A stretch of DNA of 64,000 nt from the NCBI GenBank assembly GCA_001816655.1, contig MHCP01000030.1:69623-133622 (forward strand). The letters are read 5' to 3'. The position numbers and the translations under genes are program-made. This DNA comes from Candidatus Woykebacteria bacterium RBG_13_40_15. Lineage in GTDB: Bacteria; Patescibacteriota; Microgenomatia; Woykebacterales; RBG-16-39-9b. The first letter of the stretch is position 1. Each line of letters opens with the position of its first letter. The notes beneath the pieces were generated by a model that saw nothing but the letters and a program-made list of their open reading frames with translations, searched no databases and was not told the origin of the DNA. Positions 1 to 22,942 of the stretch are shown piece after piece.

Positions 1-811
1 CAGGAACTGAAGTTTTGGTCTGATCTCTAACAACAATAAAACCTTTATTATCCAACTCTACTTGCCCTTTTAGGAAGCCTGTGGCTGGATTGTGTCCAAT
101 GGCAATAAACAAACCATCAATCCTTAAATCTTCTTCTTTCTGTGATTTTAAATTTCTTATCTTCACGCCTTCAACTTTACTCTCGCCTAAAATTTCTTCA
201 ACAACACTATCAAAAATAACTTTAATATTTTTGGTTTCGAAGACTCTATCTTGATTTTGGGCGAAAGCATCAAGCCCGCTACCTCTATGGATTAAAACAA
301 CCTCGCTTGCAATTTTAGATAGATAAGTCGCTTCCTTAGTAGCAGTATCCCCACCTCCAACTATTGCTACTTTTTTACCTTTAAAAAATGGGCCGTCGCA
401 AATGGAACAAGCGGAAACTCCTTGTCCAATAAGTCTCTGTTCGCTTTCCAAACCAAGCCAATTAGCGGCTGAGCCTGTCGCTACGATTAAACTTTTTGAT
501 TTGTATTCTTTTTCTTTTGTAAAAACTTTGAAGGGCCTTCCCGACAAATCGACTTTTATTGCTTCTTCACAAACTATTTTCGCTCCCAAGATCTCTGCTT
601 GTTTTTTAGTTTTCACCATCAATTCTGCGCCAGAAATACCTCCCGGAAACCCAGGAAAATCTTCCACCTTTGGGGCCATTGTAATTTGCCCACCAGGTTT
701 GCTGCCTTCAAAAACAATAAAATCCAGATCGCTTCTTGCAGCATAAATTGCTGCAGTTAAACCTGCCGGTCCGCCGCCGATAATAATGATATCAAAGGTT
801 TTGTTTTCCAT
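1..811 (-). CDS. trxB: thioredoxin-disulfide reductase, partial (C-terminus runs past the window start)
   Basis: Reverse-strand translation starts MENKTFDIIIIGGGPAGLTAAIYAARS (FAD GxGxxG), then a CSICDG redox CxxC and a second Rossmann motif VAIVGGGDTA. Missing from the supplied ORF track because it is truncated by the window edge. Confidence 0.85.
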   Translation of the reverse strand, partial: MENKTFDIIIIGGGPAGLTAAIYAARSDLDFIVFEGSKPGGQITMAPKVEDFPGFPGGISGAELMVKTKKQAEILGAKIVCEEAIKVDLSGRPFKVFTKEKEYKSKSLIVATGSAANWLGLESEQRLIGQGVSACSICDGPFFKGKKVAIVGGGDTATKEATYLSKIASEVVLIHRGSGLDAFAQNQDRVFETKNIKVIFDSVVEEILGESKVEGVKIRNLKSQKEEDLRIDGLFIAIGHNPATGFLKGQVELDNKGFIVVRDQTKTSVP

Positions 812-834
812 GAGAATAATAATACCACAAAAAC

Positions 835-1896
835 TTAAGCAAGCCTGGAAAGTTGTTCTTTAAAGAAATCTACATTTGGAATAGGCCCGGGGTTTGTATC
901 ATAAATGGCCGCTAGGTAGAAACTTACCCAAGAGGAAAAAATTATTGCCTCAAATGCACCGGTCTGTCGATCTTTCCCGGAAAGTTTGTAAGTAACATAT
1001 TCAAACCCTTTATTTGTTAAAAGATCTTTTGTTACCGCGTAGCGTTTATGAATTTTTTGGTCGTAATTATCAGTTTCCAAAAAAACAAATTTAATTACTT
1101 CTTTCAAGCTATCTGGAAACGAAATCCCTTCTAACAAATGGTGATTCGCTTCCGGTATTAGAAAATAATTTGAGAAAACTTTAGCATTTTCATTCAGATC
1201 GTTAGCAAAAATAGGGGCATTACCTGCTAAGAATTCTGAGGCAAAAATAACTGGGATTTTGCCGTTTAGCGCAGTTGCCAATGCTTTTGCGGCGTTTTTT
1301 TCTACAGGTATTTCTGGGCCAAGTTGCATTTTTTCAATTGAATTCAAGACTTTTTCTAAATCTTGGTCTGTAAAATTCAAAAACCCCAATTTTGCAAAGA
1401 CCCCCAAAGTAGCCCCAATAGAATAGCCCAACCCAAGTCTTGGTTTTCCTGATGGATTGTATTTTGAACCAAACTGGTAAAAAGGTAGGCTTTTCTGCTT
1501 TAGCTCTTCAACTAGCTTCCCTCCCGAGGATATCCCCAATATTTTTGCTTCCCTTTTCTGACCATCGGAAAAGGCCGACAGTGTTTCTTCCGTATCGCCA
1601 GAGTAACTAGAAACGACTAACAGGGTATTTCCTTTCACAAATGTCGGCAGGAAATAATCGTTTACAATTTGAAGTGGTAAGGAAAGATCGAAAACACTGC
1701 GAACAAAATGCGCACCTAAGCAGCTGCCGCCCATACCAGCAACTACAATATTTTTTACATTTCGATACTCTAGAGGAATTTCAACTAATCTTAGCTCTTG
1801 CCAAGCTGTTTTTAATTGATCTCCGAAAGATTTTATCGATTCTACCACATTATTGCTGTCGAGTTTTTTTATCTCTTCAACATCGTCTAGTGTCAT
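835..1896 (-). CDS. bifunctional phosphoglucose/phosphomannose isomerase (SIS domain, archaeal-type PGI/PMI)
   Basis: 353 aa. SIS-like VVAGMGGSCLGAHFV and SSYSGDTEETL motifs. Lies in a glycolytic gene context. Confidence 0.6.
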   Translation of the reverse strand: MTLDDVEEIKKLDSNNVVESIKSFGDQLKTAWQELRLVEIPLEYRNVKNIVVAGMGGSCLGAHFVRSVFDLSLPLQIVNDYFLPTFVKGNTLLVVSSYSGDTEETLSAFSDGQKREAKILGISSGGKLVEELKQKSLPFYQFGSKYNPSGKPRLGLGYSIGATLGVFAKLGFLNFTDQDLEKVLNSIEKMQLGPEIPVEKNAAKALATALNGKIPVIFASEFLAGNAPIFANDLNENAKVFSNYFLIPEANHHLLEGISFPDSLKEVIKFVFLETDNYDQKIHKRYAVTKDLLTNKGFEYVTYKLSGKDRQTGAFEAIIFSSWVSFYLAAIYDTNPGPIPNVDFFKEQLSRLA

Positions 1897-1923
1897 AATT
1901 CACCCTTTTGTTGACTCTACCAT

Positions 1924-3186
1924 TTAAATCTTGCGGACGTCAAACCAACCCTCAAGCAAATGTTGAATAATTACCCCTTCCAGCTTATCAACGCTAAAGT
2001 AACTCATGAATATTTTGTTCCAAAGCGCTTCTCTAAAATGGTAATAATACCTATCTTTAAAATTCTTATTGTTCATAACGTTCATTATATTGTCCATAAA
2101 ATTGAAGTTAACCAAATCTTGCTCACCACTAGAATTTGGTAACCACAGGGCTAGATAATTTGTATGCTCCCAAATCTTAAAATCCAAATTTGGCTTCATT
2201 TTCCCAATCTTGAAAAAGGTGTGAGAGGCACCGCGGTGATAAAGAGCTTCTGGATTGACATGCGCTGTCCCAAGGCGAGGGTCCTCCGGACTATATTTAT
2301 ACAAATAACGCTGGATTATTAGCCATTTATTTGGATCATTATGCGATAAAGAAATATCAGGCACATCACAACGGAGAGCTGAGACCATTTTTTTACCAAA
2401 GAGAGGCTGTTCAATTTGGTGCTTAAAATATCCGGAATAAGTAAGTATTTCGTCAATGTAATGATTCGTCATCACAAACATATAAAGAGTGGCTGCTTCG
2501 GTAATGTTGTCTTTTGGAATTACGAATATTACCCCAAGCTCTTTCAGATGACTCATTGAGTGTAACTTTTCTTTAAGAAACCTTTCTGCAAGCTGCTCCC
2601 ATTTGCTTCTGTCCAAAACTCGTATCTCAATTGGTCTTTCCTCAAAATCATCCTTTGAAAGTCTTCTGTAGGCTGCTATATACGTGGCATTCATCCAGTC
2701 AGAAGGTTCTGCAAACCGAAGAGCTGCATAGATTTCAAAAAGATCCTCATTTTCCAACATTTTATCAACTGACGGATACCCCAAATTCTCCAGAATATTC
2801 TTTGGGGGGTTTTCGCGCATTAGCCTTTCAGCAACATTCCTCTTTATAAAAAAGCCCGTCCGATCTTGATGCAAGGCTAGAGCTGCAGACATTAAATTAT
2901 AACAACCTTTACTCTCTAAGTAACTAGGGTGGCCCAAGGCCTCAAACATCTGTTTATCCAGCTTTCGTACACACTCCTTAATCGTTGTGTAGAGCTCTTC
3001 TGCTTTTGGATAGGTAAGACCGAGCCCTGTTAATATTCTTCCAGCTTTTTCATGGTTTTCTTCGTAAAACCGCTCCAGAACCTGCTTTTTGTCAGTTATT
3101 TTCTCTAGCGCGTCAATGTTTCGTGAGAAAATATCGGGATCAATATTTAATTGAGTTGAAAAAAATTCAGCTACTGTACTTTTCAT
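1924..3186 (-). CDS. hypothetical protein (420 aa) embedded in the sugar-metabolism cluster
   Basis: Long clean ORF, same strand as and tightly spaced with flanking metabolic genes. I recognise no motif. Confidence 0.5.
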   Translation of the reverse strand: MKSTVAEFFSTQLNIDPDIFSRNIDALEKITDKKQVLERFYEENHEKAGRILTGLGLTYPKAEELYTTIKECVRKLDKQMFEALGHPSYLESKGCYNLMSAALALHQDRTGFFIKRNVAERLMRENPPKNILENLGYPSVDKMLENEDLFEIYAALRFAEPSDWMNATYIAAYRRLSKDDFEERPIEIRVLDRSKWEQLAERFLKEKLHSMSHLKELGVIFVIPKDNITEAATLYMFVMTNHYIDEILTYSGYFKHQIEQPLFGKKMVSALRCDVPDISLSHNDPNKWLIIQRYLYKYSPEDPRLGTAHVNPEALYHRGASHTFFKIGKMKPNLDFKIWEHTNYLALWLPNSSGEQDLVNFNFMDNIMNVMNNKNFKDRYYYHFREALWNKIFMSYFSVDKLEGVIIQHLLEGWFDVRKI

Positions 3187-3272: not shown

Positions 3273-4253
3273 CTATTTGACCTTTTGCTTACTAATTGGT
3301 AATTTTTCCCTGAACGGTCTTTCTCCCAAACGCAGTATCCCTTTCTTTGCTCCGAAGAAACTAACGACGGACGATGAGTTATCAATAGCAAGTTCTAGGG
3401 CACCTTCAATATTTTCGTATTTTATTAACCCAACAATAAAGCCGGATGCGAAAGCATCACCTGCCCCAGTGCGATCAACAGCGCTATTACTATGTGTGCC
3501 AATGTGATAAAAATAGTTGCCGTCACAAGCCGTAGCTCCATTTTCCCCGTCTGTAACCACTCCAATCCCGGCAGCTAAAAGACAAGTTCTGTGGGTCAAC
3601 TTTTCTTTATCATCGAATGAAATACCTGTGAGTTCGCTAGCCTCTTCTCTATTCATTATAACAACATCCGCTTTAGCAAAAATTGGCCTAAGAACCCGAA
3701 GACCACTTTCTAGTTCCCCACCTCCGGGAATCAAGGCAACCTTAGTTCCCTTTTCTTTTGCTTCTTTCACCAGAGAGTTCAAAAGCTTGATATTTCCACC
3801 AAGACTAGTAATAACAAGCCACTTTGAATCTAGGCTCTTTGGAAAATCTTCTTCGCAAAAGTCCCCACTTGCACCTCTGAAAACAAGGATAGTTCGCTCA
3901 CCATTTTTTACAACGAGAATAATCGAATAGCCAGTGTAGTTTTCTCTATCTTTAATAACAAATTCGGTACTGACACCATCTTTTTCTAATGACTCGGCCA
4001 CAGCCTTACCTCCGGGATCATCTCCAACTCGGCAAATGCAAGCTGTATTTAATTTTTGTCTTGCGAAAGTAACTGCGGTATTTGTCGCTCCTCCACCTGT
4101 TTCAAAAATAAGCTCCTCAACATTTAATTTACTGCCAAGAGGAAGAGGTAAATTAAAACCAGTTGGGGAAGAGCGGTCACGCTTAGGTTTAAACTCTTTT
4201 GATTTTAAGAAGACGTCTCTTGTTGCAGAACCTACAGTTATTACATCAAACAT
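3273..4253 (-). CDS. PfkB-family carbohydrate kinase (ribokinase-like)
   Basis: N-terminal GGGATN and C-terminal DRTGAGDAFASGF signature motifs of ribokinase/PfkB. Confidence 0.8.
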   Translation of the reverse strand: MFDVITVGSATRDVFLKSKEFKPKRDRSSPTGFNLPLPLGSKLNVEELIFETGGGATNTAVTFARQKLNTACICRVGDDPGGKAVAESLEKDGVSTEFVIKDRENYTGYSIILVVKNGERTILVFRGASGDFCEEDFPKSLDSKWLVITSLGGNIKLLNSLVKEAKEKGTKVALIPGGGELESGLRVLRPIFAKADVVIMNREEASELTGISFDDKEKLTHRTCLLAAGIGVVTDGENGATACDGNYFYHIGTHSNSAVDRTGAGDAFASGFIVGLIKYENIEGALELAIDNSSSVVSFFGAKKGILRLGERPFREKLPISKQKVK

Positions 4254-4338
4254 TGGACAGATAAACCTTTCAAAATAAGTATAGCATTCTCCGTAACCAA
4301 ATTCTTTCCCTAATCGTTCAAGTAGATCGCTTTGCGTT

Positions 4339-4407
4339 CTGCGACCATTTCATGGACTAAATTTGGGTACTCTCAAATGCTGCGACCACTTTGTGGACTA
4401 AAATAGA
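4339..4407. promoter_or_regulatory. two adjacent copies of a dyad motif GCGACCAY-TTY-RTGGAC TAAA (CCAC-N3-GTGG core) in the pfkB upstream region
   Basis: Read directly: ctgcgaccatttcatggactaaa at 4339-4361 and ctgcgaccactttgtggactaaa at 4378-4400. A third, inverted copy lies at 5270-5300. Confidence 0.35.
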
Positions 4408-4541
4408 TGTGCTCAATTTGTGAAGAAGAAACTAAAAAACTTTGTCCTCACTCAATCAAAATTAACCATTAGGATAGCGGATTTCTACCATTCAGACTTT
4501 CTTTTTTTGGTATAATATGAACATATAGACTCCGAAAGGCG

Positions 4542-5174
4542 GTGAAACTTATGAAAAGATCTGCCAGCTTTTTATTAGCGTTCTTACTTCTAGCTTTCCC
4601 ATCCACTGTTTTTGCTGTGAGCGAGCAAGATAGTCAAGTCCAAAATCAAACTCAAACTTCAACCCAAAACCAGGGTGATGACCAACAAATCCAGACCCAA
4701 ACACAGGAGCAGGAATCCCTAAAGGCTACCTCTAGCGCTAACCAAAACAAAAACCAAACTGCTCAGCAAAACATGGAAAGGGTTCAGGAACGCTTTCAAG
4801 CCCTTCTTCAAATCCAAACTTCAGGCAGTGTTGGTGACCAGGTAAGAGTACAGGCACGAGCACAAATCCAAACTCAGGAGCAAATTAGAGAACAGCTAAA
4901 TAAAGTTGAGGCTAGAAAAGGGTTAATTAAATTCTTAATTGGCCCTCATTATCCTGGCCTAGAAAACCTAAAAGAGCAGCTTGAGCAAAACCAGCTAAGA
5001 ATAATGCAGCTTTATCAACTGCATAGCCAGATCCAAAATCAAGGTGACAAAACGGCTATCCAGTCAGCGATAGAAGCTTTGATTCAGGAAAATACTAGCC
5101 TTCAAGATAAGATCAACGAACAGGATAAATCCTTTAGTTTGTTAGGTTGGTTGCTCAAATTATTCGTTCGCTAG
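4542..5174 (+). CDS. secreted Gln-rich coiled-coil protein (signal peptide), unknown function
   Basis: N-terminal MKLMKRSASFLLAFLLLAFPSTVFA signal-like segment, then a Q/T/N-rich low-complexity region and heptad-like repeats. RBS aaaggcgg lies upstream. Confidence 0.55.
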   Translation: MKLMKRSASFLLAFLLLAFPSTVFAVSEQDSQVQNQTQTSTQNQGDDQQIQTQTQEQESLKATSSANQNKNQTAQQNMERVQERFQALLQIQTSGSVGDQVRVQARAQIQTQEQIREQLNKVEARKGLIKFLIGPHYPGLENLKEQLEQNQLRIMQLYQLHSQIQNQGDKTAIQSAIEALIQENTSLQDKINEQDKSFSLLGWLLKLFVR

Positions 5175-5190
5175 AATCGGCTGTTTTATT

Positions 5191-5293
5191 CGACAACCTT
5201 ACCGGCGGAAACGAATATGTCGATCTTGTGTTCGAAAACTGACTGAATTGCGGAGATAACATCTGGCATTAGTTTTAGCCCACGAAGTGGTCG
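5191..5293 (-). repeat. degenerate copy (about 70% nucleotide identity) of the last ~27 codons plus stop of fba; frame kept (MPDVISAIQSVFEHKIDIFVSAGKVVE*)
   Basis: Aligned by eye to 5414-5520: shared ccttaccg, cgaatatgtc, tgaattgcggagataacatctggcat versus tgaatcgcacttataacggttggcat. Confidence 0.5.
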
Positions 5294-5329
5294 CAAACTT
5301 ATGCGGACTCAGTTTTTCCAGCCGACCCA

Positions 5330-5413
5330 AAAATTTCAATTTTGCGCTCTACAACGGCTTGGATCGATGTTATAACGGTCGGCATAAGTTTTAGGAGCGG
5401 TAGCGACGCAAGA
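5330..5413 (-). repeat. second degenerate tandem copy of the fba 3' end; frame kept (MPTVITSIQAVVERKIEIFGSAGKTESA*)
   Basis: ttttgcgctctacaacggcttggatcgatgttataacggtcggcataagtttt versus ttttatgctcaacaacctcttgaatcgcacttataacggttggcataatttta in the real gene. Confidence 0.5.
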
Positions 5414-6286
5414 TTATGCGTAATTAGCCTTACCGACTGAGCCGAATATGTCTATTTTATGCTCAACAACCTCTTGAATCGCACTTATAACGGTTGGCAT
5501 AATTTTATAAACCGCGTATTCTTCCGGTTTTTCACTCAAAACTTTTTCCGTAGTGTCTCTAAAAGCTTGCCGCAGTTCCGTATTGATGTTAACTTTTACA
5601 ATTCCCCCAACTTTTATTGCTTCCTTCACCTGTTCATCGGAAATTCCGCTCCCCCCGTGCATTGATAGGAAAGTGCCTGGAAGAGCTGCTCTTATTTTTT
5701 TCAAAAGATCGAAATCAACCTGTTTTTCCTGCCCCTCAAAAATCCCATGATAGTTGCCAAAAAATGCAGCGAAAATGTCTATTCCTGTCTCCTCAACAAA
5801 TTCTTTTGCCTTCTCTGGGTTAGTTAAAGCTTTTTTTATCTCATCTTGCGACAATTTTCCGCTATGTACCCCCGAAGAGCCAGCGATATGATCTATTTCA
5901 CCTTCGACAGTAAGTCCCTTAGCGTGGACTTTTGGAACAACTTCTTTGGCAATTTTCAAATTTTCCTCGTAAGGCAACTTGGAACCATCAAAATGAACCA
6001 TATCAAAGCCAGCTTTAATTGCCTTTTCAATACCAGCCTTATCCGGGCAATGATCCAAATTTATAAGAATTGTTGCACCTTCCTCCCTCGCGTTGTCAAC
6101 AAGATCAACAATGTTATTTACACCAACAAACTTTTCTTCTCCAGAAGAAAATTCCATAATAACCGGTGCTTTTTTGTTTTTTGCGGCTGCCAAAACTCCC
6201 TTGAAAATTTCAAGATTATCAATATTAAAAGCCCCCAGGGCAAAACCTTCTGCTTCAGCTTTTGCTAACCATTTTTGAGCGTTCAT
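5414..6286 (-). CDS. fba: class II fructose-bisphosphate aldolase
   Basis: 290 aa. Class II FBA/tagatose-bisphosphate aldolase hallmarks: GAFNIDNLE at the N-terminus, DHCPD, SMHGGSG. Confidence 0.85.
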   Translation of the reverse strand: MNAQKWLAKAEAEGFALGAFNIDNLEIFKGVLAAAKNKKAPVIMEFSSGEEKFVGVNNIVDLVDNAREEGATILINLDHCPDKAGIEKAIKAGFDMVHFDGSKLPYEENLKIAKEVVPKVHAKGLTVEGEIDHIAGSSGVHSGKLSQDEIKKALTNPEKAKEFVEETGIDIFAAFFGNYHGIFEGQEKQVDFDLLKKIRAALPGTFLSMHGGSGISDEQVKEAIKVGGIVKVNINTELRQAFRDTTEKVLSEKPEEYAVYKIMPTVISAIQEVVEHKIDIFGSVGKANYA

Positions 6287-7266
6287 GACGTGCCTTTTCT
6301 TTTTAAAACTGTCCTTACGGCCTCCTTAATATCTTTTACACCCATCCCATACTTGTCCAGTAACTCTCTCGGATGTCCAGACTCACCAAATGTATCTTTT
6401 ACCCCAATTCTTTCAATTGGAACAGGATAGCTCTCAGCTAAAACCTCGGCTACTGCTCCACCAAGACCACCATCTATTTGGTGTTCCTCCACTGTAACAA
6501 TTGCGCCTGTTTCTTTAGCCGCTTTTGCAATTCCAAGCTTGTCAATTGGTTTCACCGTATGGTTGTTGATAACTTGCACGCTAATTCCCTCTTTTTCTAG
6601 TTCTTTTGCAGCCAAAAGGCAGTAGTAAACCAATGGGCCACAAGCAATAATGGTTACATCTTTTCCTTCTCTGAAAATTTCCGCTTGGCCGAATTTAAAA
6701 GGTGTTGCCTCTGTTGTAATTACTGCAGTTTTTCCCCGGGCAAAGCGAAGATAAAGCGGGCCTTTGTGCTCTGCAACATAAACAGCTGCTTTTCTAGTCT
6801 CGATGTAATCACACGGAACAACCACAGCCATATTCGGCAAAACTCTCGCTATCGCAATATCTTCCAAAGCTTGATGAGTTGCTCCATCACCACCAACACT
6901 GATTCCAGCGTGAGAGCCAACTATTTTTACATTCGCTTTTGAATAACAAACGCTGACTCTAATTTGATCCCAGGTTCTTCCAGGAGCAAAAACTGCCAGA
7001 GACGAGGCGAAAGGAATTTTCCCGTTTAAAGCAAGCCCTGCTGCAATTCCAATCATGTTTTGCTCGGCAATACCACACTCAAAAAACCTCTCAGGAAATT
7101 TTTCCGCGAAAGAATCTACGCGGGTTGATTGCTTAAGGTCTGCGCTCAATGCAACAACATCCGGGTTTTTCCCAGCCTCAAGTAAACCTTCCCCATAACC
7201 ATCCCGCATCGAAATTTTCTCGATGTCGGAATCAAAAATTTTTGAATTTAGGACAGTTTCCCTCAT
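6283..7266 (-). CDS. tkt: transketolase, C-terminal (pyrimidine-binding) subunit of a split transketolase
   Basis: 327 aa, FECGIAEQNMIGIAAGLA... and GGDGATHQALEDIA motifs. Overlaps fba by 4 nt. Confidence 0.85.
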   Translation of the reverse strand: MRETVLNSKIFDSDIEKISMRDGYGEGLLEAGKNPDVVALSADLKQSTRVDSFAEKFPERFFECGIAEQNMIGIAAGLALNGKIPFASSLAVFAPGRTWDQIRVSVCYSKANVKIVGSHAGISVGGDGATHQALEDIAIARVLPNMAVVVPCDYIETRKAAVYVAEHKGPLYLRFARGKTAVITTEATPFKFGQAEIFREGKDVTIIACGPLVYYCLLAAKELEKEGISVQVINNHTVKPIDKLGIAKAAKETGAIVTVEEHQIDGGLGGAVAEVLAESYPVPIERIGVKDTFGESGHPRELLDKYGMGVKDIKEAVRTVLKRKGTS

Positions 7267-7820
7267 TTATTCGCCTTGGCCGCCACATTTAGGTACCTTC
7301 TAGTCACCAAAACCAATCCAATCAGTACAACAACTAATTCCAAAAAGAGCCACCTCTTATCAACCGCGGTCATTCCCCGGCCGGCACCATAAAGGATCGT
7401 GAAAATTCCACCAAAGACAAGCCCTGGCCCTACTGGTCCCATCGCCTCACTAAGAAACAATGCCCCACCAGCAAGCGCAACAAAACCAATTATTGTAATT
7501 GGAATAAAGACGTTGCGATTATACGTCTCATTTTCTTTCTGGAAATCCTTGTTGCATTTATCCATCTCGGCTTGTTGATCTTCAGTCGGTCCGTCCTTGC
7601 CAAAGTTTCTCTGCATAATTGATTCGCAGTTTTCGCTCATTTGTGGAGAAGGGTAAAAAGCCTCTATTCCAAGGCCGACCATCAACGGAAAAACTACTGC
7701 AATCGCCAACCCAAGTCCCATTTTGACAACTGTATTCATTATGTCCTCACCTCCTTTGCTAGCGCTAAAGACTGCAATAATAATTAGTACCAGAACCCCT
7801 ATACCTGCTAAGCCTATCAT
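7263..7820 (-). CDS. small multi-pass membrane protein inserted between the two transketolase halves
   Basis: 185 aa with four hydrophobic segments. 4-nt overlap with tkt-C. Confidence 0.5.
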   Translation of the reverse strand: MIGLAGIGVLVLIIIAVFSASKGGEDIMNTVVKMGLGLAIAVVFPLMVGLGIEAFYPSPQMSENCESIMQRNFGKDGPTEDQQAEMDKCNKDFQKENETYNRNVFIPITIIGFVALAGGALFLSEAMGPVGPGLVFGGIFTILYGAGRGMTAVDKRWLFLELVVVLIGLVLVTRRYLNVAAKANK

Positions 7821-7850
7821 TTTATTTTAGCCAACGCAAAAATTGTAAAG

Positions 7851-8741
7851 TCACTCATGTTCGCTCACAATTTTTCCTTTCAAAGTCCGTAATTCATGCA
7901 AAGCTTTTTTGGCTTGTTCGGGACTTGGAAATTTTCCATGCCAAGAAGGATCGGCTTCCATAAAATCAACCCCTTTTCCTGGAATCGTATGGGCAATTAT
8001 AACACTTGGCTTTTCTAAAATTGCCTGAGCTTGCCTACATGCATCAACAATTGCTCTAATATTGTGCCCATCAACCTCCAACACGTGCCAGCCAAATGAT
8101 TCATATTTTTCTTTTAATGGCTCGAGTGGCATAACGTCTTCTGTAAATCCATCGATTTGAATGTTGTTTCGATCAATGATGTTTGTTAAGTTGTGCAATT
8201 TATTTTTCCCCGCAAACATTACGGCTTCCCAAGTCTGACCCTCATCGTGCTCGCCGTCACTAGTTATGCAATAAACCCAATATTTTTTATTATCCAGGCG
8301 TCCTGCAAGAGTTATTCCAATTGCTTGAGACAATCCCTGACCAAGAGAGCCAGAAGTGTTTTCTACTCCAGGGAGAGATCCAAAATGAGGATGCCCTTGA
8401 AGACGGGAACCAATTCTCCGCAGAGTAAAAAGCTCTTCCATAGGAAAGTAACCACTGTGTGCTAAGGTTGCGTATAAAACTGGAGCAATGTGGCCGTTGG
8501 AAAGTACTAATCTATCACGGTCTTCAAAGTTTGGGTTTTTGGGATTGTGATCTAAAACAGAAAAATAGAGAGCGGTAAAAACATCTGCCATCCCCAAAGA
8601 ACCAGCAGAATGACCACTGCCTGCTTCAAGAAGCATTTTTATAATGTCTTCTCTTATTTCACAGGCTTTTTTCTCTAAAATTTTTAAGTGCTCCTCAGTT
8701 AACATAGTAGTGAAGATATTAACTTTCCACAACAGGTACAA
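7851..8741 (-). CDS. tkt: transketolase, N-terminal (TPP-binding) subunit
   Basis: GSGHSAGSLGMADVFTALYF and GHPHFG... motifs. The second in-frame ATG (MLTEEHL, about 8705) is the more likely start, since the first ATG overlaps rpe by 23 nt. Confidence 0.85.
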   Translation of the reverse strand: MYLLWKVNIFTTMLTEEHLKILEKKACEIREDIIKMLLEAGSGHSAGSLGMADVFTALYFSVLDHNPKNPNFEDRDRLVLSNGHIAPVLYATLAHSGYFPMEELFTLRRIGSRLQGHPHFGSLPGVENTSGSLGQGLSQAIGITLAGRLDNKKYWVYCITSDGEHDEGQTWEAVMFAGKNKLHNLTNIIDRNNIQIDGFTEDVMPLEPLKEKYESFGWHVLEVDGHNIRAIVDACRQAQAILEKPSVIIAHTIPGKGVDFMEADPSWHGKFPSPEQAKKALHELRTLKGKIVSEHE

Positions 8742-9402
8742 TTCCTTCGATATCTTCTTTCAAAATAGATAGGGCGTTTTTTATTTTTTCTTGGTAAGTT
8801 TCTCCTTTGATATTCTCGTTTTCAAAAATGAAACTACCAGCCACTAGTATATTTGCTCCAAGCTCGGCGCAACGCCGAGCAGTTCCTGGCTCAATTCCCC
8901 CATCAATTTCGACTATAATATCTGGTCGCATGGATCGAAGTTCCGTAATCTTTCCAAGAGTCCCATGGACAAAATGCTGTCTTGAAAAACCCGGGTACAC
9001 AGCTAGCAGCAGCACTGTATCAACTTTATCTATCACATGTTGCAGGCGAGAAACTGGAGTTTCCGGGTTTATTGAAAAACCGATTTGAATATCGTGGTGG
9101 CGCATATGATGAATTAAACCAATAGGATCTCGAGCACTTTCATAAGGCACTATAATTCTAGAAGCTCGGGCTTTAACAAAAGGATCAATCCAATCTTCAA
9201 TAAAATCTACCATTAGCTGAATCTCAAGTTTTTTTAATGTTCTAAAAGAGGTGACTTCTTTATATCCAATTGTCTGGTTTCTGGCAAACTTATTATCGAC
9301 GATATCAATCTGAACCCACTCTGTTAGAGGTTCAATTGCTTTAAATTTTTTATGGTAATCGGCGACAGTTCTACTTAAAATCGCTGGGATTATTTCTGCC
9401 AT
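8719..9402 (-). CDS. rpe: ribulose-phosphate 3-epimerase
   Basis: 227 aa, AEIIPAILS..., HHMRHHD..., EIDGGI motifs of Rpe. Confidence 0.85.
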   Translation of the reverse strand: MAEIIPAILSRTVADYHKKFKAIEPLTEWVQIDIVDNKFARNQTIGYKEVTSFRTLKKLEIQLMVDFIEDWIDPFVKARASRIIVPYESARDPIGLIHHMRHHDIQIGFSINPETPVSRLQHVIDKVDTVLLLAVYPGFSRQHFVHGTLGKITELRSMRPDIIVEIDGGIEPGTARRCAELGANILVAGSFIFENENIKGETYQEKIKNALSILKEDIEGIVPVVES

Positions 9403-9869
9403 AAAGCCTCGAATTCCTCAATTTTTTTAAGGCGTCTCATGTGCCTCTCTTCAGCTGAAAACTCTGTTGAAAGCCAAGCATCAACTATTCTTTCCGCCTC
9501 CTCGAGCGATAACCCGGGAATTGGAACCAGTGTTTTTCCACCTGAGAGACAGAGTACATTTGCATCGTTACGCTCACGACTCAATTGCGCAGTTGTCGGA
9601 GTCCAAGCTGCAATTGCTCTTACCCACCTAACCTTATTAGCAGCAATACACATACCCTCCGCTGATCCGCAAAACAAAATTGCTTTTGATTTTCCTTTTG
9701 ACTCTGCTACTTTCTCGGCTGCCACAAAAGCAAAATCCGGGTAATCGTCGTCTTTATTTAATACGTGAGCACCCAAATCCTCAACCTCGTAATTATTCTC
9801 TTTAAGATGGTTCTTAATTTTTTCTTTTAACTCAAATCCTGCGTGATCGGAAGCTATATAAATTTTCAT
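9390..9869 (-). CDS. rpiB: ribose-5-phosphate isomerase B
   Basis: 159 aa, MKIYIASDHAGFELKE and LFCGSAEGM motifs of the RpiB/LacAB family. Confidence 0.85.
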   Translation of the reverse strand: MKIYIASDHAGFELKEKIKNHLKENNYEVEDLGAHVLNKDDDYPDFAFVAAEKVAESKGKSKAILFCGSAEGMCIAANKVRWVRAIAAWTPTTAQLSRERNDANVLCLSGGKTLVPIPGLSLEEAERIVDAWLSTEFSAEERHMRRLKKIEEFEALWQK

Positions 9870-19568: not shown

Positions 19569-20867
19569 CTAAAGATTGGTTGATGAGTTACTTTTTTTGT
19601 TTCTAAGCTTTACAAGCCAGTAAACTAGTGAAGCTATAGCCACAATTGCAAGAATAGCTAGCAATGTATACAGCAGAAGATTTGATTTAGCTGCTGCAGC
19701 GATCAATCTTCCACTAACCGTTGCTGAAGCAGTAGCCCCATTTGCCGAAACGACGTTCAACAGAATTTTGTTCACGCCTTCTACCAAATTAATATTTGAA
19801 GAAATCTCCCCGGATTTTGTCGCGACTTTTAATTTTCCAAGGTTCCTACCGTTCAAATATGCAGACACCGTGGCGATTGGGTCGGAAACCAGTGCCTTCA
19901 GAGTAATTTTTTTCTCCTTTGTTTCAAACCCATCCTTGGGCTCTGATATTGTAATTGTAGGCGCTGCCGTAAAAGTAGAAAAGTGAGTGACATCAAATGT
20001 AAGAACTCCACTAGAATAGCTTATATTAGAGACAACTCCCCTGTCTTCTTTGCCATTGACTAGAACCCTAGGAGTTTTAACGAAAGGGAGGCTTTTCATC
20101 TTAATAGTGGCTTTTTTGTTAAGTGCCGGTAGTTTCCCAGAATCAATCGAAACGACTCCTGACTTATCAGCCTTAACATACTGATCAAGGCTTCTAAATT
20201 TATTCACTACCTCTGAAGAAGAAAGATCGACAGCTTCATTAAATTTTATAGTGTTTTTACCTGTATCTAGAGTTAGATTTTCAACTTTATTTGGGCTCGT
20301 TATTTTTTTCAGGTCAGTAGTTTCTCCGATTCTAAAAACAGCCGGTAGAGTAACATTTTGGATTTTCACCATTTGAACAATTGTTATACCACTGCTAGTA
20401 TTATTCGTAGATGGTTGCGAAGGCACCCGGTCCAAGTAGACTGTATCCGGAGGCGAGATGCTTGTTGTTATACTTGTCGTTTTAGTGATGTAACTTGATT
20501 TGGAAATTTGAACTTCGACGGTAGGTGGTAAGGTATATCCCTCTTTTAATGATCCATCAGTTACAGTTGTGTAGATTACAACACCTGATTTGACATATTG
20601 TGTAAAGCCGAAACTCGAAAAGTTAAAAGGCTCTTGGGTTAAAAGAGCTGCCGTTGCTCCCTGTAGGTAACTACCATCACTTGAATCTTTCAAATAAAAT
20701 TCAAAACAAGGGTTACATCCGGCCAAAACAGCGCCAGAGCTGTTACTAGCGATCTCTTTGGCTGCTTTTTCAGAACTAGTTTTGGCCCAAAGAGAAGTAA
20801 GATTAAGAGCAACAATCGAAATGAGTAGAGTGGAAACAAGAAAACCAAGGCGAGCTGTCTTTACCAT
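19569..20867 (-). CDS. surface/extracellular protein with an N-terminal signal anchor and a C-terminal TM anchor
   Basis: 432 aa. An S/T-rich region, a C-terminal LLLYTLLAILAIVAIASLVYWLV helix and then a basic tail. Confidence 0.55.
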   Translation of the reverse strand: MVKTARLGFLVSTLLISIVALNLTSLWAKTSSEKAAKEIASNSSGAVLAGCNPCFEFYLKDSSDGSYLQGATAALLTQEPFNFSSFGFTQYVKSGVVIYTTVTDGSLKEGYTLPPTVEVQISKSSYITKTTSITTSISPPDTVYLDRVPSQPSTNNTSSGITIVQMVKIQNVTLPAVFRIGETTDLKKITSPNKVENLTLDTGKNTIKFNEAVDLSSSEVVNKFRSLDQYVKADKSGVVSIDSGKLPALNKKATIKMKSLPFVKTPRVLVNGKEDRGVVSNISYSSGVLTFDVTHFSTFTAAPTITISEPKDGFETKEKKITLKALVSDPIATVSAYLNGRNLGKLKVATKSGEISSNINLVEGVNKILLNVVSANGATASATVSGRLIAAAAKSNLLLYTLLAILAIVAIASLVYWLVKLRNKKSNSSTNL

Positions 20868-20957
20868 ACTTTAATTTTATTTTATGGTTTGTTGCCTTGT
20901 CAATTTAAAATTGGCTGAGCACGACGGTCTAGAACCGTTCGATCCCATAGGCTCCAT

Positions 20958-21734
20958 TTATAACAAACGGCTCTCAATATATGCTATCCCAAGAGGAGAT
21001 AGTGTTACGCTTTTGTCCACTTTATCGTACTCCCATAGTCGATTTCTGTGTCCTGGTATTAAGACATCGCGTCTGTAAACACCTGAATTTGTGTGTTCTG
21101 TCCAGGATACTAAAACCTTTTCTGTTACCCGATTATTTTCCGAGTAGAGGAGTAGCAACGTTTTTTCTCTCATGGTCAATTGAGTATTTAATACTCTTTT
21201 TTTATTATTGACTTTCCAAATTGTTGGAGTTTCTCTTTCAGTCAGCACCTCGACAACGGCAGTCGCTTCTTGGGTGTCAACGTTGTGGAAAATTCTGACC
21301 AACTCAGCCATAATCCATTTGGAACAATACAGTACTACAGTAGCATCCATGTGATTTGGATCGACTTCTCCGCCCACGTGCCCTACCCCACGATTATTGC
21401 GGACCTCGTACAACGCTATCAACATTCTTGGAATTTGAATTCGCACCGACCGCGGAAATGCTGCCGGAACTCTGGAAAGAGAGTTGCAAGCGTCAACCAT
21501 GTTAGGGGGTTTGGAAGATTTCTGTGGAAATGAACCAGTTATGTGGCCGTTCAAAATGGAGTATACTACTTCACAAAACTTGCCACCATTAAGCTCGGAT
21601 GGCTCCCATCTACCTTCCCGAAAATTTACCATTATTTTGTTAAGAGCTTGTAAAAGTTCTTTGCGCAGTCTTACTGGTAGTTGGCCAAGGGCATTCTCAG
21701 GATTCATCGAAGTTGTTTTCAAGGAGTCTTTCAC
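20958..21734 (-). CDS. hypothetical protein with a HEPN-like Rx6H motif (EVRNNRGVGHVGGE), possible RNase effector
   Basis: 258 aa, last gene of a 3-gene overlapping operon. The motif was read from the translation; the family is unassigned. Confidence 0.5.
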   Translation of the reverse strand: MKDSLKTTSMNPENALGQLPVRLRKELLQALNKIMVNFREGRWEPSELNGGKFCEVVYSILNGHITGSFPQKSSKPPNMVDACNSLSRVPAAFPRSVRIQIPRMLIALYEVRNNRGVGHVGGEVDPNHMDATVVLYCSKWIMAELVRIFHNVDTQEATAVVEVLTERETPTIWKVNNKKRVLNTQLTMREKTLLLLYSENNRVTEKVLVSWTEHTNSGVYRRDVLIPGHRNRLWEYDKVDKSVTLSPLGIAYIESRLL

Positions 21735-22110
21735 CCGAATTTGTTATATACCAAGCTTTTTTATTGTCTTTTTTTTCTGAAGCTTCGGCCATATGCCCGT
21801 TTTTGACATTGATATTGACTTTGTCATTTATGTTAAGGGGTTTTTTCTCCTTGGCTTTCTCATACTCACTCCTCAGGTCATCAACGTTAAAAGATATAAA
21901 GCCTTCATTTTTTTCTAAAAAACAGCCGATCGCGAGTGTCTTTTGGACATTGTTAGTGGTTTTTTTTGAAATTAGAAATTCTTTAATACTCAATTTCTTG
22001 CTCTGACGGTGCTCAGGCAGAGTATCAAACCTCGTCTTGCTAATGGCCTGCTCTAGGATTGTTATCCTTCTTTTGAGATCTTCTAATTGCTCTTGGATAT
22101 CTTTACTCAT
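21697..22110 (-). CDS. hypothetical protein with an N-terminal coiled coil (middle gene of the module)
   Basis: 137 aa. QEQLEDLKRRITILEQAISK heptads. Overlaps its neighbours by 8 nt and 38 nt. Confidence 0.45.
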   Translation of the reverse strand: MSKDIQEQLEDLKRRITILEQAISKTRFDTLPEHRQSKKLSIKEFLISKKTTNNVQKTLAIGCFLEKNEGFISFNVDDLRSEYEKAKEKKPLNINDKVNINVKNGHMAEASEKKDNKKAWYITNSGERLLENNFDES

Positions 22111-22534
22111 CTTTTTTCAAACCTCTTTTCAGCTCGTCAGCAATCTTCGATAGCGAGTAACCAGGAATAAAATAACTCCCACCTTTTCCCATATCAACAA
22201 CTCCCTTAGATCTAAGTTGCGACAAATAAGATCTAGTAGAGTTGTAGTTAACTCCTGTTTTCTTGCTAATCTCCTTAGGCTTTTCAGGCTCATTTTCCGA
22301 AGAGATTTTCCCCGTCTCTAAAAGTGCTTTTCTGTAGAGAAGGTAAACCAAGAGCTTCAATCTTGCGTCAAGGTTGGAAAAAGCCTCCTTGAAAACCGGC
22401 CCAAGAGTCTTATTATCAATTCCGATATAATCCTTAAGAAGATTTGCTAACAATTCCCTATTAACCTCTGTGCCGTCTACAAAAAGGTATTCTAAGGGAT
22501 CATTATTAGAATTCTTAATAGTTTTTTCTGACAT
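22103..22534 (-). CDS. predicted winged-helix DNA-binding protein (first gene of the module)
   Basis: 143 aa. HTH-like ISKKTGVNYNSTRSYLSQLRSKGVV followed by GGSYFIPG. Confidence 0.45.
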   Translation of the reverse strand: MSEKTIKNSNNDPLEYLFVDGTEVNRELLANLLKDYIGIDNKTLGPVFKEAFSNLDARLKLLVYLLYRKALLETGKISSENEPEKPKEISKKTGVNYNSTRSYLSQLRSKGVVDMGKGGSYFIPGYSLSKIADELKRGLKKDE

Positions 22535-22738
22535 AGTATCTTTTTCACTATAACTATCTTTTTATTTAAAAATAGCTTCCATTAGGACTGTATCAAAAAA
22601 GATACTACCTGTCAATAGTACATTATGGATACTATGATAGGCATGAGTTTTCGGTATGAGTGTTTCAAGAAAAAACTAGTGATTTTGGAGGAAAACATGG
22701 TCTATTTAAGGAATGTGGGTCGCTAGAGGTGCGCAATC

Positions 22739-22812
22739 TGGCTGCCGGACTAGGATTCGAACCTAGATATGCAGATCCAGGGTCTGCTGTCCTACCGTTA
22801 GACGATCCGGCA
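22739..22812 (-). tRNA. tRNA, anticodon read as CUG (Gln); unusual C at position 33
   Basis: Folded by hand: acceptor TGCCGGA/TCCGGCA, D-arm GTCT-AACGGTA-GGAC, anticodon stem GCAGA/TCTGC with loop CCCTGGA, T-arm CTAGG-TTCGAAT-CCTAG, discriminator G, CCA encoded. Confidence 0.6.
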
Positions 22813-22942
22813 ATAATCCCGCCTCTCCGGCGGGTCGCTGTTGAGACGACTACCACTAGACGACCCCGCAATACTTCGACAAGCTCAGTATAAATGTAGA
22901 AGAATTTTAACAAACGGAAGGCTAAATTACAAACCTTGAGGA

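Follow-up and report, generated by a model that had tools for sequence, protein, structure and literature searches.

The 64,000-nt stretch of Candidatus Woykebacteria bacterium RBG_13_40_15 DNA analyzed here (the window) carries three overlapping minus-strand genes, designated P1, P2 and P3, toward which the 3′ end of a tRNA-Gln gene points. Comparison with related loci identified P2 and P3 as the conserved core of this operon and P1 as an accessory gene. From its sequence pattern and predicted structure, we place the N-terminal domain of P3 as a new family of the HEPN superfamily, outside Abi_C, DUF4145 and the other curated families. The operon is probably a toxin-antitoxin-like or abortive-infection module with a predicted HEPN RNase as its effector, and it is a cargo of tRNA-integrating islands.

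P3 contains a HEPN-like domain and a winged helix

An earlier sequence-only reading of the window had noticed a HEPN RNase motif of the form R-x4-6-H in the third protein of the operon. The motif, EVRNNRGVGHVGGE, is present in P3 and has been kept in its homologs, with R103 and R106 as well as H110 invariant or nearly so across the family. Among 54 family members that are 29–51% identical to the query, residues E46, R103, R106, D121 and W131 are invariant, and N104, H110, N118, E135 and R138 are conserved in at least 90%. The conserved block reads IPRxL..Y..RNxRGVGH.GG.V.PN..DA...W..AEL.R, and the length of the proteins is constant at ~250 amino acids.

An AlphaFold2 model of the N-terminal domain (residues 1–158) was obtained with a predicted local distance difference test score (pLDDT) of 90 and a predicted template modeling score (pTM) of 0.87. 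The modeled domain is a four-helix up-and-down bundle with HEPN topology. In this model R103 and N104 close the helix formed by residues 86–104, and H110 lies in the loop 105–116, ahead of the helix 117–141. E46 is located in helix 2 (residues 41–57), where the family consensus is CExVxR and the window protein has a serine at the +4 position. Residues 58–85 are modeled as an insert between helices 2 and 3 that includes a short helix (70–77). The C-terminal part of P3 (residues ~160–249), which had no place in the earlier account, is a MarR-like winged helix.

In the part of the survey by Anantharaman et al. (2013, PMC3710099) covered here, the criteria for HEPN domains include a polar residue (N, D or H) after the arginine of the motif, a further conserved acidic residue, located in helix 2 and often part of Ex3[KR], and frequent inserts between helices 2 and 3. 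Placement of the motif at a helix end and in the loop that follows, as seen in P3, is also what the survey requires of a HEPN domain. Since P3 matches each of these criteria, its N-terminal domain was assigned to the superfamily, in which it forms a new family. R103, N104 and H110 are the catalytic residues predicted by analogy with other HEPN proteins, assisted by E46. The helical domain was also considered as a tyrosine recombinase, DinB-like or hemerythrin-like domain, and these readings were rejected because the corresponding conserved residues or top structural matches were absent.

P2 and P3 form a conserved pair

The three minus-strand open reading frames (ORFs) listed in the sequence-only reading (22103–22534, 21697–22110 and 20958–21734) are all present. 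The 8-nt overlap that it gave for P1 and P2 is correct (ATGAGTAA, 22103–22110), but the 38-nt overlap that it gave for P2 and P3 requires P3 to start at GTG 21734. All homologs and the NCBI model of 249 amino acids start instead at ATG 21707, with the common N-terminus MNPENALG, and we therefore set the P2/P3 overlap at 11 nt (ATGAATCCTGA, 21697–21707). Translational coupling of P2 and P3, as it had proposed, is still consistent with the corrected overlap. A sigma-70-like promoter lies 53 nt 5′ of the P1 start.

One genome per species was scanned for P3 loci across 185,579 species; 304 loci were confirmed and the best 80 kept. The occurrence of P1 and P2 was counted by iterative hidden Markov model searches over 84 loci. 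A P2-family gene is found directly 5′ of P3 in 73 of the 84, and in most of the other 11 the P2 position is taken by a diverged ORF of ~190–250 amino acids with a similar C-terminal end. P1 was found in 11 of the 84 loci and in every examined locus with a P2 gene of the window type (P2a); its family was small in a word-index search. Thus, of the three-gene unit described earlier, the P2-P3 pair stands while P1 is not a constant member. The pair has the generic arrangement of type II toxin-antitoxin systems, in which adjacent partner genes always occur together, with overlapping stop and start codons. P3 is the better conserved of the two, with mean column identities of 38–63% compared with 24% for P2.

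P2 does begin with a short coiled-coil-like helix, as had been noted. However, its N-terminus and the basic linker that follows vary across the family, and the alignment places the conserved part in a C-terminal winged-helix-like domain of ~85 amino acids. A P2 profile searched against PDB sequences weakly matched the recognition helix and wing of MarR/MepR (E 0.15), with nothing significant, and three members of the P2 family matched PadR. In P1, residues 79–131 gave sub-threshold matches to TrmB, HTH_45 and Rrf2, and P1 homologs were at or near threshold for HTH_IclR, HTH_24 and MarR. All three proteins therefore probably contain a winged helix. Scans of P1, P2 and P3 with Pfam, NCBIfam, PHROGs and PADLOC gave nothing at threshold, a search against PADLOC-DB v2 gave nothing meaningful, and no nucleotidyltransferase match was found for P1 or P2 in profile scans. 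Two or three tandem P2 paralogs (P2a with the coiled coil, then P2b) precede the effector gene at L010 (1246–2174), L100 (5001–5843) and L101 (4074–5820), where L numbers denote loci of relatives; the window operon has the P2a type only.

Homologs of P3 (E ≤ 1e-3) form 3573 clusters at 90% identity and 1013 clusters at 50% identity, 629 of the latter at E ≤ 1e-10. Among the best 80 of the 304 loci, identity to the window P3 is 51–69% and the flanking sequences are unrelated. In the species scan the loci were sporadic, had different flanks and came from at least 12 phyla. The hosts include Patescibacteria, Actinomycetota (among them cultured Streptomyces, Amycolatopsis and Solirubrobacter), Alpha-, Beta-, Gamma- and Deltaproteobacteria, Chloroflexi, Planctomycetes, Cyanobacteria, Nitrospirae, Bacteroidetes, Acidobacteria, Gemmatimonadetes, Omnitrophota and Deinococcota.

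Different effectors follow the same partners

Homologs of the window P1 and P2 (55–62% identity for P2) also precede other terminal genes. At L005, L006, L099 and L102 the terminal gene encodes a protein of 236–274 amino acids with an N-terminal winged helix-turn-helix (wHTH) and a PLD-like domain. These wHTH-PLD-like proteins match PLDc_2 over the full profile length at E 1.5e-4, which is below threshold, and match the PADLOC phage-defense candidate PDC-S05 at E 2e-13 to 6e-11, with weaker matches to DrmC and MkoC. The terminal gene of L101 gave a weak match to DUF4145, a HEPN family. Since P1/P2 homologs precede PLD-like and DUF4145-like effectors as well as P3, different proteins can fill the effector slot.

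It is typical of defense and toxin systems that nuclease-type effectors can be exchanged while their partners are conserved. The exchange of effectors behind the same P1/P2 partners therefore strengthens the label of a defense or abortive-infection module, and so do neighboring restriction-modification and integrase genes: the neighbors at L099 include a type ISP restriction-modification enzyme and a Cas4-like gene, and those at L100 an integrase and a HinfI restriction-modification pair. Phage_integrase was the commonest Pfam family among 148 immediate neighbors at 75 loci, with 5 occurrences; Fic was found twice, and DarT and N6_Mtase once each.

These results also bear on whether P3 is an enzyme. 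P1, P2 and P3 could instead be a trio of DNA-binding winged-helix regulators of islet or host genes, in which the HEPN-like domain of P3 is non-catalytic and binds a ligand or a protein, as in Roquin and the nucleotidyltransferase-associated HEPN proteins. We consider this improbable. The PLD-like and DUF4145-like replacements in the P3 slot point to an enzymatic effector, and R103, N104, H110 and E46 remain invariant or nearly so in P3 homologs down to 29% identity, whereas non-catalytic HEPN proteins, according to the covered part of PMC3710099, typically lose the Rx4-6H motif.

The module is carried on tRNA islands

The 3′ end of a tRNA gene faces the module within ~80–550 nt in 13 of ~85 non-redundant loci of relatives (L001/2, L004/11, L010, L013, L019, L033, L040, L057, L066, L071, L076, L081 and L099), and does so in the window as well. 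By a hand estimate, the background density of tRNA genes in the same loci would give ~1 such case. A tRNA-Gln(CTG) gene adjoins P1-P2a modules three times, in the window, L001/2 and L099. In eight relatives the islands that contain the module are bracketed by exact or near-exact direct repeats of the tRNA 3′ end of 25–50 nt (Table 1). The islands of L010 and L071 hold the P1/P2/P3 module as their sole gene content, and no integrase is present in these two or in L083. Integrase-less mini-islands such as those of L010 and L071 therefore suggest either mobilization in trans or decay of larger islands. The L034 island has a tyrosine integrase at its distal end. A further case is provided by the metagenome contigs L001 and L003, which are 100% identical over >8 kb comprising the module and the right flank and diverge exactly at the tRNA 3′ end, within the last 7 nt of tRNA-Gln(CTG), at position 4723/4724. 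To the left of this point L003 lacks a tRNA and carries a VIT1 gene instead, so that one element is seen in two left-hand contexts.

Other genes were seen in some of these islands. In L083 the P2-P3 pair is accompanied by a zeta-toxin/AAA_33-like gene (4225–4833) and a small upstream ORF, which gives an island with two toxin-like modules. Much of the tRNA-Val island of L019 is filled by two adjacent genes for proteins of ~290–300 amino acids without a Pfam match (6890–8658), which may be further island cargo. The tRNA-Pro island of L040 includes an insertion sequence-like element (8678–9851) with transposase HTH and integrase-core-like ORFs, as judged from the sequence.

In another reading, the module itself moves the islands, either by controlling islet excision, integration or transfer, for example through directionality factors, or by an unconventional recombination at tRNA genes. 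The islets of L010, L071 and the window lack an integrase although their boundaries are of tRNA type, the module lies at the tRNA-proximal edge in many loci, and excisionases are often winged-helix proteins. Nevertheless, we regard such a role as very improbable. About 84% of the loci have no adjacent tRNA, and where one is present the species varies (Gln, Ser, Val, Pro, Leu, Trp, Lys, Arg, Met), as fits cargo moved by different integrases; tyrosine integrases are carried by L034 and L100. Neither catalytic residues nor folds of a recombinase type were found, and effector swapping does not fit a role in recombination.

The islet in the window

Both ARAGORN and Rfam (57.7 bits) call the tRNA of the sequence-only reading, at 22739–22812, as tRNA-Gln(CTG); its 3′ end is 204 nt from P1. 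The resemblance to tRNA of the two flanking fragments that it described has a basis as well. Upstream of the tRNA, the 24 nt at 22850–22873 are 83% identical to 22792–22815 of tRNA-Gln. On the distal side, 20912–20936 fits the T-loop-to-CCA layout GGTTCNANNCC-N11-CCA, a pattern found twice in the 64 kb (in this remnant and in the true tRNA) with 0.01 expected by chance. The remnant is oriented like tRNA-Gln, comes right behind the P3 stop and matches the exact attachment (att) repeats of L010 and L071 in extent and position. ARAGORN called neither fragment, and Infernal with Rfam found no match at E ≤ 10 on either flank. No integrase appears in the ORF list between 20912 and 22738, and the spacers between the tRNA and P1 in the window, L001 and L099 have no conserved sequence in common.

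A syntenic relative, L088, has the gene order gltX-histidine kinase-histidine kinase-89-amino acid protein-PAP2, and its second histidine kinase is 44% identical to that of the window. It has 70 nt where the window holds tRNA-Gln, the module and a gene for a surface protein of 432 amino acids; the segment 19417–22942 is entirely missing. As the L088 site is empty, the window module looks like an integrase-less islet of 1.8 kb (20912–22738). The module is not part of a syntenic core: it is absent at L088, sporadic elsewhere and, in the eight relatives described above, enclosed by tRNA repeats. Its GC content of 0.397 is indistinguishable from that of the window (0.400 ± 0.025), and composition consequently gives no signal of a recent transfer.

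The surface-protein gene (19569–20867) is also variable at this locus, as it belongs to the segment that is extra relative to L088. A promoter-like site, TTGACA-18-TAAAAT, with a strong match (11/12) precedes it at 20874–20903 on the minus strand. This site begins directly after the tRNA 3′-end-like remnant, so that the islet boundary abuts the promoter of the neighboring gene. Between the degenerate 5′ copy and the intact tRNA-Gln there is a GC-rich hairpin, CCCGCC-TCTCC-GGCGGG (22818–22834); this hairpin may be the relic of an earlier rearrangement or of a tandem tRNA at the site.

Table 1. Features of the module in the window and islands bracketed by tRNA repeats in relatives
Feature	Position	Strand	Description
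P1	22103–22534	-	143 amino acids; accessory winged-helix protein
P2	21697–22110	-	137 amino acids; coiled-coil N-terminus and winged-helix-like C-terminal domain
P3	20958–21707	-	249 amino acids; HEPN-like N-terminal domain and MarR-like winged helix
P3 HEPN-like N-terminal domain	21234–21707	-	Residues 1–158
Predicted HEPN Rx6H motif	21378–21401	-	Codons of R103-N-N-R106-G-V-G-H110
E46 codon	21570–21572	-	Invariant acidic residue, helix 2 (41–57)
tRNA-Gln(CTG)	22739–22812	-	CCA encoded; 3′ end toward module; ARAGORN and Rfam
Degenerate copy of tRNA-Gln 5′ part	22850–22873	-	Acceptor and D-arm; upstream of intact tRNA
tRNA 3′-end-like remnant	20912–20936	-	T-loop to CCA; probable distal island boundary
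Inferred mini-island	20912–22738	-	~1.8 kb; only P1-P2-P3, without integrase
Sigma-70-like promoter	22587–22615	-	TTGACA-17-TACAGT, preceded by TG; 10/12, consensus match only
L010 island, tRNA-Trp	209–3084		Repeat 25 nt, exact; 2.9 kb
L071 island, tRNA-Lys	4560–6828		Repeat 41/42 nt; 2.3 kb
L083 island, tRNA-Leu	3544–7154		Repeat 50 nt; 3.6 kb
L081 island, tRNA-Pro			Repeat 44 nt; 4.3 kb
L019 island, tRNA-Val			Repeat 46 nt; 6.0 kb
L040 island, tRNA-Pro			Repeat 46 nt; 6.0 kb
L034 island, tRNA-Gly			Repeat 44 nt; 6.2 kb
L055 island, tRNA-Asp			Repeat 44 nt; 7.7 kb

Proposed function

HEPN proteins act as dimers in which the Rx4-6H motifs of two protomers form the active site. By analogy, P3 would be a metal-independent RNase, active as a dimer with its two Rx6H motifs juxtaposed, and its winged helix may bind nucleic acid. 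P2, the translationally coupled and obligate partner, would hold P3 inactive, autoregulate the operon, or do both, in the manner of an antitoxin or a sensor, and P1 would be an accessory winged-helix regulator in one sub-lineage. Loss of P2, or a cue from infection or from a mobile element, might release P3, which would then cleave cellular or invader RNA and arrest growth. The outcome could be abortive infection, in which the population is protected from phage, or post-segregational stabilization of the islet. The analysis shows the gene structure, the fold, the conservation and placement of the motif, the obligate pairing of P2 with P3, the swapping of effectors, the tRNA-att island setting and the absence from a syntenic relative; the RNase activity, the neutralization of P3 by P2, the trigger and the phenotype are what we infer. 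The interpretation of the locus as a candidate defense or abortive-infection system, first made in the sequence-only reading, is supported by the comparisons reported here, and it came through the two refuting checks that the reading had named, on the fold of P3 and on synteny.

Several results weigh against a HEPN-based conflict module carried on a tRNA islet. No Pfam or NCBIfam HEPN family and no PADLOC model matched P3 at threshold. The window protein had no Pfam match at E ≤ 1 and nothing relevant in NCBIfam, and the 54 diverse members searched against the curated family and PADLOC libraries likewise gave nothing at threshold. The best curated HEPN match was to Abi_C, made weakly by 2 of the 54 members (E 0.02); AbiJ_NTD was matched neither by these members nor by the window protein. 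A search of PDB sequences with the P3 profile was negative, as was a search with the single P3 sequence, which found nothing significant. Foldseek found no match below E 0.2 for the N-terminal domain in the PDB, although HEPN proteins were over-represented among the non-significant matches. No P3 homolog was detected by tblastn in 72,556 plasmids or 50,697 phages, and none in a scan of IMG/VR; thus there is no sign that plasmids or phages carry the module. Immediate neighbors are mostly ordinary metabolic or housekeeping genes, which makes any enrichment in defense islands only modest. Finally, the acceptor and T-stem sequences of the distal remnant in the window differ from those of tRNA-Gln, with 14 of 25 positions identical. 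Consequently, the remnant is not a duplicate of the tRNA-Gln end, and a search for a copy of that end beyond the module gave no significant match in the window, L001 or L099.

The weightiest rival reading is that of a purely selfish element. P2 and P3 may be a toxin-antitoxin pair that only stabilizes the tRNA-integrated islet by addiction, without an anti-phage role. In agreement with this, the antitoxin-like gene comes first, its stop overlaps the start of the toxin-like gene, and P3 is better conserved than P2; in addition, the att-bracketed islets of L010 and L071 hold the module alone, and that of L083 combines it with the zeta-toxin-like gene. However, these partners also occur with PLD-like proteins matching the phage-defense candidate PDC-S05, and they are found beside restriction-modification systems. 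We believe that addiction as the sole function is unlikely. Many toxin-antitoxin systems also abort infection, and addiction and the toxin-antitoxin-like or abortive-infection module that we favor are not mutually exclusive.

A wider proposal can be made more tentatively. P1/P2-type winged-helix partners may define an unrecognized, modular and phylum-spanning immune or conflict system in which they gate interchangeable nuclease effectors (HEPN-wHTH, PLD/PDC-S05-like and DUF4145-like HEPN proteins). Such a system would spread through minimal tRNA-att islets that have no integrase and rely on integrases supplied in trans, and one sub-lineage would be specialized on tRNA-Gln(CTG). We hold this to be possible, with less confidence than the assignment of the module itself.

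The P3 family, with ~1000 clusters at 50% identity, spans at least 12 phyla, shows unusually high conservation and is among the larger families without annotation. If P3 is indeed a HEPN RNase under the control of a winged-helix partner, a new architecture would be added to HEPN toxins and abortive-infection effectors, PDC-S05 would gain an operon context, and thousands of genes now called ‘hypothetical’ would gain an annotation. The att-bracketed islets of 2–3 kb with the module as sole cargo would exemplify the movement of defense or toxin modules between tRNA sites without an integrase of their own. Culturable hosts also carry the P3 family, including Streptomyces, Mesorhizobium, Xylophilus, Solirubrobacter and Puia.

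Comparison with known systems

The module belongs to a known kind, that of HEPN-based conflict modules carried by tRNA islands. A literature search turned up no description of the P3 family. In the libraries and literature searched, the HEPN family, the HEPN-wHTH architecture, the winged-helix partners, the swapping series that links P3 to PDC-S05-like PLD proteins and the minimal att-bracketed islets are not described.

HEPN RNase toxins and abortive-infection effectors named in the covered part of Anantharaman et al. (2013, PMC3710099) include AbiJ/Abi_C, DUF4145, HEPN-MNT toxins and Csm6/Csx1. By sequence profile P3 belongs to none of the curated HEPN families, the weak match to Abi_C being the best. 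Fusions to wHTH occur in other HEPN families, but an N-terminal HEPN domain with a C-terminal wHTH and a wHTH partner was not found among the families treated in that part of the survey. The module also differs from known HEPN systems in that it has no MNT, CARF, reverse-transcriptase or AbiJ-NTD partner. Compared with AbiJ/Abi_C, the domain order is reversed, with the HEPN domain of P3 N-terminal and its wHTH C-terminal, while Abi_C is C-terminal and follows AbiJ-NTD. Because it has a wHTH of its own, P3 is roughly double the size of minimal HEPN toxins.

In its gene arrangement the module resembles HEPN-MNT (SO_3166/SO_3165) and RnlA-RnlB, which also consist of two adjacent, overlapping genes, the upstream one for a small partner and the downstream one for a HEPN-like protein. 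As in type II HEPN toxin-antitoxin systems, conservation is stronger in the effector than in the partner, and the pair occurs on mobile islands. P2, however, is neither MNT nor RnlB; its N-terminus is variable and its C-terminal domain is winged-helix-like. The likeness to PDC-S05 is one of position, in that wHTH-PLD-like proteins take the P3 slot behind homologous P1/P2 genes. The window effector differs in being of the HEPN type and in having no PADLOC match, and PDC-S05, which is listed as a single-gene candidate, is in the relatives studied here part of a three-gene operon.

Finally, the location at a tRNA 3′ end, and in relatives between direct repeats of that end, is that of tRNA-integrating islands and integrase-less cis-mobilizable elements (CIMEs). 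Some of the islands have a tyrosine integrase (L034 and L100), and others, like the window, have boundaries and no integrase. The distal remnant in the window, which is not a copy of the adjacent tRNA end, is a difference from such elements. The smallest islets differ from them further in being very short (1.8–2.9 kb) and in carrying a defense-like operon as their sole cargo.

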